Source: a virus
Strand: one strand, 5' to 3'
Length of the DNA: 38,339 bases
Virus record (IMG/VR): IMGVR_UViG_3300045988_105630
The notes beneath the pieces were generated by a model, which saw nothing but the letters and a program-made list of their open reading frames with translations, ran no database searches and was not told the origin of the DNA. Shown here one piece after another: positions 2,918 to 28,055 of the stretch. A program made the translations under genes and the position numbers. Each line of letters begins with the position of its first letter. The first letter of the stretch is position 1.

Positions 2918-3388
2918 ATGAATTTACCTGAAATTTTTTCATCAAATTTAAAAAGATATTTATCTGAACAAAACAGAACACAATTAGAACTATCAAAATA
3001 TTTAGGAGTATCAAATACTACAGTAAATAATTGTGTCAAGGGATATAATATGCCTAGAATGGATAAGATAGATAAGATATGTAGTTTTTTTGGAATACAA
3101 AGAACCGACCTAATCGAACCACCAAAAAAAGAAAACAAACTAACAACAGACCAGGAACAACTAATCACGAATTACAACAACTCCAACACACAAGGAAAAA
3201 CAATAATACTCACAACAGCAAAAAATATCTCCAAAGCATATCCAGTTGTCACACGTGATGAAATGATCTCATACCTCAAACAATTCCAGCGTGCAGCATA
3301 CGGAGACATGAAATCAATCTATGACATGACAGATGAAGAACTAGAACAACTATACATAAAATACAAGGAAGACTTCGAAGATGACTAA
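2918..3388 (+). CDS. XRE-family repressor (ImmR/CI-like)
   Basis: ORF track, 156 aa. N-terminal HTH: LKRYLSEQNRTQLELSKYLGVSNTTVNNCVKGYNMPRMDKIDKICSFFG. It is divergent from the consensus early promoter and overlaps the downstream ImmA-like gene. Confidence 0.8.
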   Translation: MNLPEIFSSNLKRYLSEQNRTQLELSKYLGVSNTTVNNCVKGYNMPRMDKIDKICSFFGIQRTDLIEPPKKENKLTTDQEQLITNYNNSNTQGKTIILTTAKNISKAYPVVTRDEMISYLKQFQRAAYGDMKSIYDMTDEELEQLYIKYKEDFEDD

Positions 3389-3797
3389 ACAAGACATAGA
3401 CCTCATAGTACAAGGATTAGTAGAAGTCGTAGGATCCAAAAACCTCAAAGACATAATAGACTACCTAGAAATAAAACTAATCACACACAGTAATACCACA
3501 GAATACGTCAACCACAACGGCAAACAAATCATCTACATATCGGAAACAATACCCGAACAACTACACGATTTCGTACTTGCCCATGAAATAGGACACGCAG
3601 TATTACACGATCATGAAATAATCCAGTATTCAAAACTAACCACACACAAAACCCAAACAGAAAAAGAAGCCGACTACTTCGCATTCAAACTCCTTGATAA
3701 ACAAATAGACCCAATATACCAATACACAGCACAACAATACGCAAAACTACTACAAGTAAACGAAGACATCATTCAATACATAATACAAGACAATTAA
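3381..3797 (+). CDS. ImmA/IrrE-family zinc metalloprotease (anti-repressor protease)
   Basis: ORF track, 138 aa. It has the HEIGH motif (FVLAHEIGHAVLHDHE) and is translationally coupled to the XRE repressor, the ImmR/ImmA arrangement. Confidence 0.8.
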   Translation: MTKQDIDLIVQGLVEVVGSKNLKDIIDYLEIKLITHSNTTEYVNHNGKQIIYISETIPEQLHDFVLAHEIGHAVLHDHEIIQYSKLTTHKTQTEKEADYFAFKLLDKQIDPIYQYTAQQYAKLLQVNEDIIQYIIQDN

Positions 3798-3800
3798 ACT

Positions 3801-3863
3801 CTTAGTACGGTATATTGCATTTTTTCGTACTAACATTTTTCTTAGTACGGTATATTGTATTTT
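3801..3863 (+). repeat. 23-nt direct repeat cttagtacggtatattg[c/t]atttt at 3801..3823 and 3841..3863. The first copy is part of the hairpin TTAGTACG/CGTACTAA.
   Basis: Read directly, 22/23 identical with 40-bp spacing. The 8-bp inverted repeat (3802..3809 and 3826..3833) is followed by a T-rich tract and could terminate the repressor operon. Confidence 0.6.
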
Positions 3864-3915
3864 AAGAGGTAATAAAGTTTTTCTTTACTGAAATATGTAA
3901 AATATTCAAGAAAGC

Positions 3916-4023
3916 TTGAAAAATTTCAAATTAATCATATAATGGAGATAGAGATTAGCATCATACTTCCCAAGGGAACATGTATGCGGAAATACCCTCC
4001 ATTATTATGGGGGGTATTTTTTT
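3916..4023 (+). ncRNA. Candidate short non-coding RNA unit A (promoter, about 70-75 nt RNA, intrinsic terminator) fused to an Abi remnant
   Basis: TTGAAA (3916..3921), 16 nt, TATAAT (3938..3943). Hairpin AAATACCCTCC (3990..4000) / GGGGGGTATTT (4009..4019) runs into a T tract that ends at 4023. There is no SD-preceded ORF. Confidence 0.4.
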
Positions 4024-4068
4024 ATGAAACCATTTAAAACACTAGATGAACAAATTAAAATAAAATAG
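4024..4068 (+). pseudogene. 14-codon 5' remnant of an Abi_2-type gene
   Basis: ATGAAACCATTTAAAACACTAGATGAACAAATTAAAATAAAATAG encodes MKPFKTLDEQIKIK*. It is homologous to KPFKTIEEQIQIL of ORF 4619..5596 (aaaccatttaaaaca and gaacaaatt are identical). Confidence 0.6.
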
Positions 4069-4105
4069 TTAAGCTATTTAAAAATAAAATTTTTAGGAGG
4101 AAGAA

Positions 4106-4495
4106 ATGACAGACATAGTAGAATGTAAAGTTATAGCAATTTTAGACAAATACACCATATTAATAGACTACGGTAGGTCTGATGGTGCTTCACTAAAAGA
4201 TTCAGTCAGAGTGATACAAAGAGGTCCTTTAGTTGTTTATGATGGAGAAGAATATGGTAGCTTAGACAACATAAAAGCAGAACTGACAATTAAAACAATA
4301 TACAACAATTTTTCAGTATGCAAAAATTCAAAAACGTCGAACGCAGTCATAAAAAACTTCTCTCAATCATTTCTATCCCTTTATGAAGCACAACATGAAG
4401 AATTGAACGTAAACGAATCACAAATTGAGAATCTAGACGTCCCAGAAGATAAAATAATCAATTTGGGAGATTTGGTAGAAGTAATAAAATTTTAA
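4106..4495 (+). CDS. Hypothetical protein (129 aa), cargo gene between the Abi remnant and the intact Abi gene
   Basis: ORF track. Strong SD TAGGAGGAAG lies 5 nt upstream. No domain recognised. Confidence 0.65.
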   Translation: MTDIVECKVIAILDKYTILIDYGRSDGASLKDSVRVIQRGPLVVYDGEEYGSLDNIKAELTIKTIYNNFSVCKNSKTSNAVIKNFSQSFLSLYEAQHEELNVNESQIENLDVPEDKIINLGDLVEVIKF

Positions 4496-4603
4496 TTTAC
4501 AAAAAGTAAAAAATATGCTATAGTAGTGATACAAAGATGACTTGGTTACGGGAAATATCTCGAACTGCTTAAACCCTATCACGCTATAGTGATAGGGCTT
4601 TTT
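4496..4603 (+). ncRNA. Candidate short non-coding RNA unit B (promoter, about 70-75 nt RNA, intrinsic terminator) immediately upstream of the Abi_2 gene
   Basis: TTTACA (4496..4501), 17 nt, TGcTATAGT (4516..4524). Hairpin CCCTATCAC (4574..4582) / GTGATAGGG (4589..4597) plus CTTTTT. It contains only an 11-codon ORF with no SD. Confidence 0.4.
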
Positions 4604-4618
4604 GTGTTAGGAAAGATT

Positions 4619-5596
4619 ATGAAACAACAAAGAATTCCAGACAAACCATTTAAAACAATTGAAGAACAAATTCAGATATTAAGATCTAGAAAATTAATTA
4701 TAGAAGATGAAAAATTTGCTGAATATGCGCTATTTACTTTTTCGTATTACGACTTAATCAATGGATATAAAGAATGTTTCATGGTAGATGATGAGTTTAG
4801 ACCAAACATTTCAATTGAATACTTGTATAATTTTTGTAGATTCGACCATAGATTACAAAACATTATTTTTCAATATAGCGTAATAGTTGAGACAAAATTT
4901 AAAACAGCTCTTGCCTATGTAATCTCAAAAAATCACGGAGTGTTTCAAGATGAATATCTATCAAGAAATAATTACATAAGATCCTCTAAAAATAAAAATA
5001 AAGTCGATAAAATTCTAAGTAAAGTTAGAGAAACTTATTCGCATAATTTTAAACATTTAGAAAACCCTACAAAACATTATATAGATACGAAAAATCACAT
5101 TCCTCCATGGATACTATTTAAAAATGTAACCTTTAATAACGTCATAAATCTATATTCAATACTAAATAATAATGACAAAAAAGAAGTTTGCAGTTTGATT
5201 TTAGATATAGATTTGCCAGAAAATCAAAAGCTTCAACTTTTTAAAGATTGCCTTACTATTATAAGACAATTTAGAAATAAAATCGCTCATAAATTGAAAT
5301 TTATCAGCTTCAAAACAAAAAGTAATCACCTATCAAAAAAAGTACTCACAGAAACTTCTTTCGACATTTTGTTTGATAAAAAAGTATACAACGAAGCTTA
5401 TAGTGCAATTATAGCTCTTAATATAATGTTAAATAAAAATTTAGATCTTTTAATAAGTCTAAATGCATCACTAAGTTCATTGTTAACACAACAAGATAAC
5501 AAAGAAATAATTCAAGATTATTGTAATATAACATCAATACCATTGGATTTTGACGAAAGAGCCAAAAACTTTTTAAGTGATTTATATAGACATTAA
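4619..5596 (+). CDS. Abi_2 family (AbiD/AbiF-like) HEPN abortive-infection protein
   Basis: The ORF track gives 4589..5596, but that GTG lies inside the terminator stem. The ATG at 4619 has the SD AGGAAAG. N-terminus: MKQQRIPDKPFKTIEEQIQILRSRKLIIEDEKFAEYALFTFSYYDLINGY. It carries the R-x4-H motif RQFRNKIAH. Confidence 0.7.
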   Translation: MKQQRIPDKPFKTIEEQIQILRSRKLIIEDEKFAEYALFTFSYYDLINGYKECFMVDDEFRPNISIEYLYNFCRFDHRLQNIIFQYSVIVETKFKTALAYVISKNHGVFQDEYLSRNNYIRSSKNKNKVDKILSKVRETYSHNFKHLENPTKHYIDTKNHIPPWILFKNVTFNNVINLYSILNNNDKKEVCSLILDIDLPENQKLQLFKDCLTIIRQFRNKIAHKLKFISFKTKSNHLSKKVLTETSFDILFDKKVYNEAYSAIIALNIMLNKNLDLLISLNASLSSLLTQQDNKEIIQDYCNITSIPLDFDERAKNFLSDLYRH

Positions 5597-5643
5597 CAAA
5601 AAAAGCCCCTCATTAGCGACAACTAATAAAGGACTTAAAGTGT

Positions 5644-5685
5644 AGTATATGCTATATACCTAGCACTAATATTATAGCATATGCT
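5644..5685. repeat. Imperfect 13-bp inverted repeat AGTATATGCTATA / TATAGCATATGCT flanking a 16-bp core. It is a candidate attP core or integrase-promoter operator.
   Basis: Read directly. The arms at 5644..5656 and 5673..5685 have one mismatch. The repeat lies 30 bp upstream of the serine integrase start. Confidence 0.35.
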
Positions 5686-5715
5686 CCTAAAAAAACATAA
5701 AAAAGGAGTAAAAGT

Positions 5716-7182
5716 ATGAAAAAAGCAGTAGGTTATTGTAGATTTTCTACAGACATGCAAAGAGAAGAATCTATCATGGCACAAATGAGAGCCATAGATG
5801 AATTCGCAAAAAGAGAATCAATAGAAATTATAAAATATTATAAAGACCAAGGACAATCAGGAACTTCCGACAACAGAGATGATTTTCAACTGATGATGAA
5901 AGAAGTTAAAAACATAGATTACGTTATTGTCCACAAATTTGATAGATTCGCTAGAAATAGCTTTGACCACGTAATAAACGAAAGAAAACTAAACAACAAA
6001 GGAATCAAATTAGTTTCAGTACTTGAACCAGTTGGAGAAAATCCAGAAAGCATATTAACCAAAAATCTACTTATAGGAATGAATGAGTATTTCTCTCTTA
6101 ACCTCTCAAGAGAAGTTAAAAAGGGACACAAAGAAAATGCACTACAATGTAAATTCAATGGAGGAACTCCCCCACTTGGATATAAAATTGTAGACGGATT
6201 TTACAAAATTGATGAAGAAGAAGCAAAAATCGTAGAAAAGATATTTGCTCTAAGACTACAAAATTATAGCTATCAAAAGATTGCAGATACATTGAACGGT
6301 TTAGGATACAAAAACAAGTATGGCAAAGAATTTAACCGCAATTCTTTCTATGAAATGCTACAAAATAAAAGATATAAAGGTACTTATATCTACGGAGTTA
6401 ATGATGGCAGTGGAGAAGTAAGAAACTATAGAAAAAGAAATTCTGAATGGGTAGAAATAGAAGACGCTATCCCAGCGATAATTACAAAAGAGGTGTGGGA
6501 AGAAGTGAATAAAAAATATAGAAAAAGATCAGGAGCCTTTAAGAAAGATGCAAGAGATTATATACTATCAGGATTAGTTTTCTGTGAACAATGTGGCGCC
6601 CCTATGCTAGGATGTAGTAGACAATCCTCTACTGGGAAGAAATACTATTATTACCGCTGCAACGATAGATGTGGAGCTAAGTCAATAAGAGCCGACCTAT
6701 TAGAAGAAGTTGTAACAAGCCTTATAAGAGATCATTTAATTCACGAAAAAAATATAGATGTTATAGTTGATTATGTAGTATCCAATTATGAAATGGAAAA
6801 TCCTTATAGAGAATTAGAAAAACAAAAAAACAAACTAATTAGACAAAGAGACAATATAGTTAATTTAATGGCTGAAACAGGTTCAAAAGCATTAATTGAT
6901 AAACTGGAACAATTAGATAGACAAATAGATAATATCTACATACCGCCTTTCAAACAAGTAGTATTAGATAGAGACGTGATCAAAAAAAGATATCTTCAAT
7001 TCCTTCATGAGCCTTTAACTGGATCCATGATAAGACTTCTAATAAAAAAAATAAAGGTTAACGACCATAAAACGATCATTAACCTTGTAAATTACCCAAA
7101 TGAATTACTCAATGGGTATAGTAATGGTGCAGGAAAAACACCACAAAATTTATACCCACGTGAAATAGAACTAATTTCTTAA
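5716..7182 (+). CDS. Large serine recombinase (phage integrase)
   Basis: ORF track, 488 aa. N-terminal resolvase-type domain: AVGYCRFSTDMQREES...VHKFDRFARN. A central recombinase domain is followed by the Zn-ribbon CEQCGAPM...YYYYRCNDRCG and a C-terminal coiled-coil. Confidence 0.9.
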   Translation: MKKAVGYCRFSTDMQREESIMAQMRAIDEFAKRESIEIIKYYKDQGQSGTSDNRDDFQLMMKEVKNIDYVIVHKFDRFARNSFDHVINERKLNNKGIKLVSVLEPVGENPESILTKNLLIGMNEYFSLNLSREVKKGHKENALQCKFNGGTPPLGYKIVDGFYKIDEEEAKIVEKIFALRLQNYSYQKIADTLNGLGYKNKYGKEFNRNSFYEMLQNKRYKGTYIYGVNDGSGEVRNYRKRNSEWVEIEDAIPAIITKEVWEEVNKKYRKRSGAFKKDARDYILSGLVFCEQCGAPMLGCSRQSSTGKKYYYYRCNDRCGAKSIRADLLEEVVTSLIRDHLIHEKNIDVIVDYVVSNYEMENPYRELEKQKNKLIRQRDNIVNLMAETGSKALIDKLEQLDRQIDNIYIPPFKQVVLDRDVIKKRYLQFLHEPLTGSMIRLLIKKIKVNDHKTIINLVNYPNELLNGYSNGAGKTPQNLYPREIELIS

Positions 7183-27669: not shown

Positions 27670-28026
27670 TTACATAAATACCAATTTAATCAAACTTGAA
27701 ATAGTATCCACGTTTTTTAATAAAAAGTTTTTAACTTCTTGCATTTTACTATTTTCAGTTAAAAATTGCATACCTTTAAAAGTAATCCTCATATCAGTTA
27801 AATCATTACATATGATAGATTCAATACCCCAAGCATGAGCAAAAATTAACCCATCAATAAATCCCTCTTTTTGCATTATTTCAAGTAAATCGTTAAAATA
27901 ATTTTCATCTATGCTACCAATAGCTGTTTTGAATTCATTAATATCAAATACAGTTTTCCTTTTTAAAACTGCATAAAGGTATGTTAATACTTTAAAAACA
28001 ATAACATTATAGTCATCCTTTGCCAA
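27670..28026 (-). CDS. YjcQ-like winged-helix protein occupying the small-terminase position (TTG start)
   Basis: ORF track, 118 aa. ...DLLEIMQKEGFIDGL...ITFKGMQFLTENSKM resembles YjcQ as remembered. AGGAGGTGG lies 7 nt before the TTG. It is directly upstream of terL. Confidence 0.45.
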   Translation of the reverse strand: MAKDDYNVIVFKVLTYLYAVLKRKTVFDINEFKTAIGSIDENYFNDLLEIMQKEGFIDGLIFAHAWGIESIICNDLTDMRITFKGMQFLTENSKMQEVKNFLLKNVDTISSLIKLVFM

Positions 28027-28055
28027 AATACGTCCACCTCCTAAAATTATGCACT

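Follow-up and report, generated by a model that had tools for sequence, protein, structure and literature searches.

AbiD/F proteins are among the commonest single-gene abortive-infection (Abi) defences and have been proposed as ancestors of Cas13. Here we describe a gene of this family, abi, with the small-RNA unit directly upstream of it (unit 2), a partner gene (orf129) and a second promoter–RNA–terminator unit (unit 1) in the IMG/VR virus record IMGVR_UViG_3300045988_105630, a prophage sequence of 38,339 nt with a low GC content of 34% (hereafter the window). This cassette is likely a prophage-borne AbiD/F (Abi_2) abortive-infection system that works as a type III-like toxin–antitoxin pair with antitermination, and that carries unit 1 as a relic.

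That an upstream RNA controls AbiD/F proteins was first shown in 2025, for two systems, and the general kind is thus known. AbiFCd of a C. difficile prophage is toxic, and RCd22 binds it directly and neutralizes it in cis and in trans; RCd22 is an upstream RNA of ~100 nt with its own SigA promoter, a terminator and two Rfam abiF motifs (RF03085) (PMC12373285). Zilberzwige-Tal et al. (2025) are reported to have solved PbAbiF together with its non-coding RNA (ncRNA), the homodimer holding two of these, and to have classed AbiF as a type III toxin (PMC12737573; PMC13064643). For the lactococcal AbiD, AbiD1 and AbiF, native upstream sequence has been reported to be needed for the gene to be tolerated (PMC13064643). 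A preliminary description of the window, made from its letters, had stated that an upstream ncRNA restrains AbiF-type HEPN proteins, correctly so in the light of the 2025 reports (PMC12373285), and the RNA–terminator–toxin order that it pointed out is the published layout of the type III-like AbiF/ncRNA systems (PMC12373285, PMC12737573). All sequence elements that it listed were found at their places.

The abi gene encodes an Abi_2/AbiD-F HEPN protein and is preceded by a promoter, a predicted small RNA and a terminator

4496–4618, + strand: unit 2 (promoter P2, RNA2, terminator T2 and Shine–Dalgarno sequence)
4496–4524, + strand: P2, sigma-70-type promoter of RNA2, TTTACA-17-TATAGT with an upstream TG (10/12, extended -10)
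4531–4603, + strand: RNA2, predicted small RNA of ~73 nt (leave-out covariance model, covariation, folding)
4619–5596, + strand: abi, gene of an Abi_2/AbiD-F HEPN protein of 325 aa (Pfam, PADLOC, PHROG and PDB matches)

The abi product had been taken for an Abi_2/HEPN protein with an R-x4-H motif, and profile searches bore this out: hidden Markov model (HMM) comparison with Pfam Abi_2 (PF07751) gave 108.9 bits against a curated cut-off of 25.6 (E 4.9e-31), and the protein also matched PADLOC AbiD (E 1.5e-40) and PHROG 2158 'abortive infection resistance protein' (E 8.5e-60). Its sole PDB relative by sequence was 8vz6_A, the PbAbiF chain of the AbiF–ncRNA complex (E 1.9e-7), in a match of low similarity that covers residues 4–226 only. 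In this alignment the HEPN R-x4-H motif of abi, R219-N-K-I-A-H224 (nt 5273–5290), falls on RNSCCH of PbAbiF, where the active-site residues R210/H215 lie (PMC12373285), and R219, N220 and H224 were invariant among 36 abi homologues. The 4619–5596 product is a member of the Abi_2/AbiD-F HEPN family and a homologue of PbAbiF (PDB 8VZ6), and by analogy with its relatives the 325-aa protein would be toxic as an RNase.

The promoter and hairpin unit described before abi was recovered in full. P2 scores 10/12, and the stop codon of orf129 abuts its -35 element; T2 has hairpin arms CCCTATCAC/GTGATAGGG at 4574–4597, followed by CTTTTT, from which 15 nt lead to the abi ATG, with the Shine–Dalgarno sequence AGGAAAG at 4609–4615. 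RNA2 would consist of a 5′ motif AGAUGAC (4535–4541), a P2 hairpin (the RNA helix of that name, 4544–4566), the T2 hairpin (4574–4597) and a U tract (4598–4603). Its minimum free energy (MFE) has a z of -4.6 relative to shuffled sequences, and 0/200 shuffles were equally stable. Tandem Repeats Finder (TRF) detected no tandem repeats in 3900–4100 and 4496–4618, in agreement with the earlier statement that the RNAs are not of the tandem-repeat type. A second abi promoter in the terminator loop was considered and dropped, there being no -35 element and the loops being not -10-like at most loci. An exact 13-nt repeat, AGTGATACAAAGA, occurs at 4210–4222 in orf129 and at 4525–4537 at the start of RNA2; it is probably due to chance because it is not kept in six relatives.

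The upstream RNA belongs to a conserved and covarying family

Relatives of the Abi protein were gathered with an alignment query, which gave 145 loci (65 from genomes and 80 from viral contigs), while a single-protein query of the genome contigs gave none. The genomes include Anaerococcus, Peptoniphilus, Veillonella, Fusobacterium, Leptotrichia and Selenomonas. A layout of a good promoter, 40–50 nt, a strong terminator, a Shine–Dalgarno sequence and the start codon was present in 101 of 115 unique upstream regions, with the promoter position of P2 kept in 101/115, and the transcribed part in the related loci runs from an AGAUGA(A/C) or AGUGAA motif through a hairpin of variable sequence to the terminator.

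The covariance model R1 gave plus-strand matches in 79 of 100 loci, always directly before the Abi start. A leave-out model, R2, was trained on non-window sequences only, with a near-identical locus of another phage (L066, see below) left out as well; its top match in the window was RNA2 at 4532–4604 (36.2 bits, E 1.9e-7), and it also matched, at 37–50 bits, six independent loci that had been retrieved via orf129 and not via Abi. In the model alignment 95.8% of the cells were paired and all 13 of the 13 modelled pairs had compensatory changes, which is the covarying structure upstream of Abi_2 homologues that the first description had looked to; 0/500 shuffles attained the observed values, and slid registers collapsed. 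The modelled pairs are those of the 4-bp base of the P2 hairpin and of the terminator only, the inner P2 stem being not alignable (MAFFT). A local closing helix of a 5′ UAG with a 3′ CUA after the P2 hairpin, noticed by eye, was dropped, its register being inconsistent across subfamilies.

The Rfam abiF motif RF03085, a covariance model with the hairpin CCCGCC-A-AGC...GCU-CAAAUC-GGCGGG, had no match at E ≤ 10 in 161–211-nt slices of the window or in the whole window, none in 20 related loci at the gathering score and none in 14 more at E ≤ 0.01; the positive control phiC2 scored 37.6 and 19.5 bits. Permissive-threshold matches to other Rfam families (PyrR, CyaR etc.) were rejected as weak and terminator-driven. 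The RNAs upstream of this Abi_2 clade form a conserved structured family with covariation, and RNA2 is of an uncatalogued type that matches neither RF03085 nor another Rfam family, as the earlier suggestion of an unclassified variant had it.

Some further observations were made in these loci. In some of them (L005, L036 and L023), and at 4010–4026 of the window, the terminator U tract meets the ATG with no separate Shine–Dalgarno sequence, and in these three loci and unit 1 the sole purine-rich stretch before the ATG is the G run of the terminator 3′ arm; where the U tract so runs into the ATG, translation could depend on an open terminator. At L034 (uncultured Lachnospira metagenome-assembled genome), a skipping-rope RNA (RF02924) at 1578–1646, ~340 nt upstream of the orf129 homologue, scored 50.6 bits, exceeding the gathering score. 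At L168 (Streptococcus phage Javan565), a match to the S. pyogenes small RNA Spy779816 (RF02589, 70.8 bits) lies on the minus strand at 1732–1837, between the Abi gene and the integrase gene.

A conserved partner gene, orf129, precedes unit 2

4106–4495, + strand: orf129, gene of a conserved small protein of 129 aa with a modelled beta-barrel fold (homologues, HMM, AlphaFold2 (AF2) model)

The preliminary description had both units right and overlooked the conserved gene between them, orf129, which has a strong AGGAGG Shine–Dalgarno sequence. An orf129 homologue lies directly upstream of Abi_2 in 67 of the 145 loci by tblastn and in 69 by HMM, with an intergenic gap of about 90–190 nt. By exhaustive profile search the family comprises 600 representative clusters, and among nine members sampled by exact look-up across the score range, eight have an Abi_2 gene downstream. 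In the sole exception (L163, 1989–2927), two convergent orf129-family genes overlap by their 3′ ends in the regulatory region of a phage, and no Abi_2 gene is close by. Gp3 of Staphylococcus phage phi575 and a hypothetical protein of Lactobacillus phage JNU_P5 are also members, and both precede Abi genes.

The window orf129 protein had no Pfam match, and 51 of 101 family members match Pfam FlgT_C (PF16538). An AF2 model built from 101 sequences reached a predicted confidence (pLDDT) of 88, compared with 41 from 8 sequences, and Foldseek likened it to the small beta-barrels of FlgT, MreC and the F1 N-terminal domain (template modelling score about 0.35–0.48). We regard orf129 as a conserved third part of the cassette, with a beta-barrel fold predicted by the model. 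In a related prophage (L152, 1539–2948), a gene of a 469-aa SNIPE/T5orf172/MUG113 nuclease-like protein is flanked by a CI-type repressor gene and orf129, hinting at a small defence island at this point of the prophage.

Unit 1 appears to be what is left of an earlier abi cassette

3916–4068, + strand: unit 1 (promoter P1, RNA1, terminator T1 and abi remnant)
3916–3943, + strand: P1, sigma-70-type promoter of unit 1, TTGAAA-16-TATAAT (11/12, best match)
3936–3947, + strand: A1, -10 hexamer and discriminator of P1, CAUAUAAUGGAG, complementary to B1
3950–4023, + strand: RNA1, predicted transcript of ~74 nt (start predicted from the promoter)
3997–4009, + strand: B1, distal 5′ arm and loop of T1, CUCCAUUAUUAUG, partner of A1
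4024–4068, + strand: remnant of an earlier abi gene, 14 codons, MKPFKTLDEQIKIK and stop (repeat, blastn-short, consensus)

The layout of unit 2 recurs at 3916–4023, as had been noticed from the sequence. P1, at 11/12, ranked as the best promoter match within 3300–6000, and RNA1 would contain a hairpin (3958–3987), a terminator hairpin (3988–4021) and a U tract to 4023, the T1 core being an inverted repeat with arms 3990–4002 and 4007–4019 and a T tract to 4023. RNA1 folds with an MFE of -29.7 (z -5.3), with 0/200 shuffles equally stable, and it shares with the family the layout, a UAGA start spaced as usual from the -10 hexamer and the complementarity of promoter and terminator arm (A:B) treated in the next section; the A1:B1 duplex beats 1984 of 2000 dinucleotide shuffles (16/2000 attain it, p about 0.008). 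Under the leave-out model R2, RNA1 scored 17.3 bits (E 0.039), mostly from the terminator, which is the level of a chance match: an unrelated site at 27975–28042 scored 17.5.

The 14-codon open reading frame (ORF) behind T1 had been read as an abi fragment, and three comparisons agree with this. Positions 4027–4062 are 86% identical over 36 nt to 4643–4678 of the intact abi; blastn-short matches fell exactly on the first codons of the Abi genes in five other loci (L070, L059, L039, L064 and L010); and the peptide fits the Abi family consensus KPFKTxDEQIxI. In the twin locus L066, from another phage, orf129, RNA2 and abi are present at 99% identity and unit 1 is not; there orf129 comes 23 nt after a CI/S24-type repressor gene, and the identity between the window and L066 begins at the orf129 Shine–Dalgarno sequence. 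Unit 1 is also missing from the other relatives examined. Because the near-identical L066 cassette occurs without unit 1, unit 1 and the abi fragment would be the remains of an earlier abi cassette, and the proposal of two successive alleles at this spot fits. Unit 1 appears to be the relic of this earlier occupant, the left end of the older cassette, and what had been called an orphan would now also be the promoter and leader of orf129. No intact relative of unit 1 was found in three pattern scans of viral contigs, and the metagenome pattern gave only the same phage.

A further repeat pairs 3865–3893 with 4477–4505 (29 nt, 79% identity) at a spacing of 612, near the 616 of the abi remnant pair, and its left copy reads EVIKF, resembling the C-terminus of orf129. 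Tentatively, 3865–3893 may be the remnant of an earlier orf129 3′ end left of P1, or the likeness may be due to chance in AT-rich DNA.

Unit 1 might instead be selected as an orphan antitoxin or decoy against another AbiD/F toxin, carried by the host or by a competing element, and the escape of phages from ToxIN by means of ToxI-like RNAs is a precedent; the parts first suggested for RNA1, as a spare antitoxin, a decoy or a cross-immunity element, are speculative. This would suit the rank of P1 as the best promoter match in the region, the intact RNA1 hairpins (z -5.3), the intact A1:B1 pairing (p about 0.008) and the truncation of the coding sequence on the right of unit 1 and perhaps of that on its left. 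However, unit 1 was found only in this phage and an identical metagenome contig, so that conservation cannot be shown; the twin phage L066 manages without it; the family model does not recognise RNA1; and the need for an orf129 promoter would also preserve the unit. We therefore consider an orphan antitoxin quite improbable and retain the relic as the better account of unit 1.

The promoter -10 region is complementary to the terminator arm

4519–4531, + strand: A2, -10 hexamer and discriminator of P2, UAUAGUAGUGAUA, complementary to B2
4577–4588, + strand: B2, distal 5′ arm and loop of T2, UAUCACGCUAUA, partner of A2

A1:B1 and A2:B2 each form a helix of 12 bp in the MFE structure of the partial long transcript, and the A2:B2 duplex (-13.4 kcal/mol) was attained by 0/2000 shuffles (p<0.0005). 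Among 42 non-redundant lineages the A:B complementarity was locus-specific, with a mean of 13.8 for self and 10.6 for cross combinations, and 0/10000 permutations were as high (z about 10). Counted from the -10 hexamer, the signal occupied offsets -5 to +10 only, with none at offsets 7–16 taken alone, so most of it precedes the predicted start. When upstream-begun transcripts were cut at the loop and folded, the MFE structure had 5 or more A:B pairs in 32 of the 42 lineages, compared with 41% for swapped controls, and the genes upstream were co-directional in 33 of 39 lineages. Segment A1 would be present only in transcripts begun upstream of P1. This suggests that upstream-begun transcripts read through, whereas those begun at the promoter itself terminate.

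The complementarity could also have an origin other than antitermination, namely a small RNA that starts further upstream and has its own closing helix, or an inverted repeat acting at the DNA level. The covarying segment straddles the predicted start (offsets 1–10) and shares bases with the conserved UAG of the 5′ motif, and the terminator is the more stable equilibrium fold, all of which would be expected from such an origin. Against this, the signal reaches the -10 hexamer and, in streptococcal phages, the promoter spacer, neither of which can be transcribed from that promoter; no conserved alternative upstream promoter was present; and the locus-to-locus variation of the sequence speaks against a shared DNA-binding protein. 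An origin of this sort is rather unlikely in our view, and antitermination is preferred.

As a further alternative, the upstream RNA might only restrain abi transcription and translation in cis, as a leader or attenuator, and not be a protein-binding antitoxin that acts in trans. The terminator is only 15 nt from the abi start codon, the alternative A:B pairing is classic attenuator logic, and the abiF motif, the known protein contact, is unmatched here. But a near-consensus dedicated promoter ~100 nt before the gene is kept in >100 loci, so that an abundant short RNA is to be expected; the single-stranded 5′ AGAUGA(A/C) motif and the P2 hairpin would be superfluous for a simple terminator; and in both AbiF systems studied the leader RNA binds the toxin in trans (PMC12373285, PMC12737573). 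A purely cis-acting leader is unlikely on this balance.

A model for the setting of the toxin:antitoxin ratio

In the antitoxin reading, P2 would be a strong internal promoter directly upstream of abi that produces the structured RNA2 of ~73 nt, and RNA2 would most likely bind the Abi dimer and silence its RNase, by analogy with AbiF/AbiFr and AbiFCd/RCd22. T2 would keep abi transcription low, and abi mRNA would come mainly from upstream starts, in orf129 or in the immunity operon. Only these upstream-begun transcripts would carry segment A, the -10/discriminator sequence; A would pair with B before the terminator 3′ arm is made, and no termination would follow. Transcripts begun at P2 lack A, and would therefore terminate and yield the antitoxin RNA. 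As to its history, the orf129–RNA2–abi cassette would have recombined in and overwritten an older abi cassette, of which unit 1 is the presumed left end.

Several points weigh against this model. In the equilibrium fold of the full-length long transcript the terminator persists, which would leave only a kinetic route to antitermination. The transcription starts are predictions from promoter geometry only. The antitoxin role is transferred by protein homology (about 20–30% identity) and gene layout only, because RNA2 has no RF03085 match. In RCd22/phiC2 the A:B complementarity was not significant (545/2000 shuffles), and the short and long transcripts of RCd22, the experimentally mapped relative, share one start site (PMC12373285).

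A wider reading, which we hold to be possible though doubtful, is that of a three-component defence module of beta-barrel protein, small RNA and HEPN toxin, in which the promoter sequence of the antitoxin RNA doubles as antiterminator for the terminator before the toxin gene, a regulatory device not described before. If it were true, whether antitoxin RNA or toxin mRNA is made would depend on the point of transcription start; toxin synthesis would be coupled to transcription of the immunity operon of the prophage, with the beta-barrel protein as a sensor or modulator.

The cassette lies in the lysogeny module

2918–3388, + strand: helix-turn-helix (HTH) gene
3381–3797, + strand: ImmA/M78 peptidase gene
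5603–5636, strand not assigned: hairpin terminator in the gap between abi and the serine integrase gene (terminator scan)
5716–7182, + strand: serine integrase gene (integrase domains)

The cassette is located in the lysogeny module, with the HTH and ImmA genes on one side and the integrase gene on the other. The 5603–5636 terminator was called on the minus strand in the scan and has an A/T-rich flank on both sides. In the region scan, promoter-like hexamers were not enriched as a class (16 found and 15 expected), so the case for the two promoters rests on their scores and on the conserved layout in related loci; P1 and P2 are among the three top-scoring promoter matches in 2.7 kb, the third being a minus-strand site of 10/12. 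Terminator-like sites in the 2.7 kb numbered 3, with 0.9 expected, and the T2 hairpin is one of them.

Between the ImmA gene and P1, at 3800–3863, two 24-nt direct repeats, TCTTAGTACGGTATATTG(C/T)ATTTT, are 96% identical and 40 nt apart, with an inverted partial copy, CGTACTAA, inside the pair at 3826–3839; these repeats look like operator sites. Elsewhere in the window, a 233-aa ORF at 680–1381 has Cys-rich N-terminal motifs, its top Pfam match being a weak one to DUF6510, under the cut-off.

Discussion

In a large prophage Abi_2 clade of Peptoniphilaceae, Veillonella, Fusobacterium and relatives, the genes appear to use a conserved RNA of another type, absent from Rfam. About half of the Abi_2 genes of this clade carry an uncharacterised partner, whose family of ~600 clusters includes merely 'hypothetical' genes of the published phages phi575 and JNU_P5. 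The covariation of promoter and terminator arm provides a directly testable model of how the toxin:antitoxin ratio is set, and a cassette replacement is documented that left an intact RNA unit behind. New here are the uncatalogued RNA family, the conserved partner protein, a possible start-site-dependent antiterminator and the relic of a former cassette; the functions given to them are inferred.

Comparison with known systems

With AbiF–AbiFr of Prevotellaceae (PbAbiF, 8VZ6), the window cassette has in common an Abi_2/HEPN toxin with the Rx4H motif, the proteins being detectably homologous. It also shares the cis-encoded small RNA immediately upstream, and both are treated as type III toxin–antitoxin systems (PMC12737573, PMC12373285). 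It differs in being prophage-borne and in having an extra conserved protein gene upstream, and the two are likened by protein and layout only.

AbiFCd–RCd22 of the C. difficile phages phi027/phiC2 (Saunier et al. 2025) is likewise prophage-encoded and has the same order of a SigA promoter, an RNA of ~100 nt, an intrinsic terminator and abi, in which the short transcript would be expected to dominate. However, RCd22 contains two RF03085 hairpins, and none was found in the window RNAs and 34 related loci; the window RNA is instead built around a 5′ AGAUGA motif, a single variable hairpin and the terminator. The location differs too, RCd22 being inside the lysis module and the window cassette between immunity genes and integrase, and RCd22 has no orf129 partner.

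ToxIN, CptIN and TenpIN have the same order of RNA gene, terminator and endoribonuclease toxin gene, with the terminator setting the RNA:toxin ratio, but in these systems the toxin, which is not an HEPN protein, processes an antitoxin made of tandem repeats; the window RNAs have no such repeats. The lactococcal AbiD, AbiD1 and AbiF belong to the same Pfam and PADLOC family as the window Abi, and differ in being plasmid-borne, with no partner protein described.

In attenuator leaders such as those of the pT181 and pIP501 rep genes, three segments, A, B and C, are present, and pairing of A with B pre-empts the B:C terminator. The window units would follow the same three-segment logic, with the difference that segment A is the promoter's own -10/discriminator sequence, so that the start site would make the choice, with no ligand, ribosome or antisense RNA involved.

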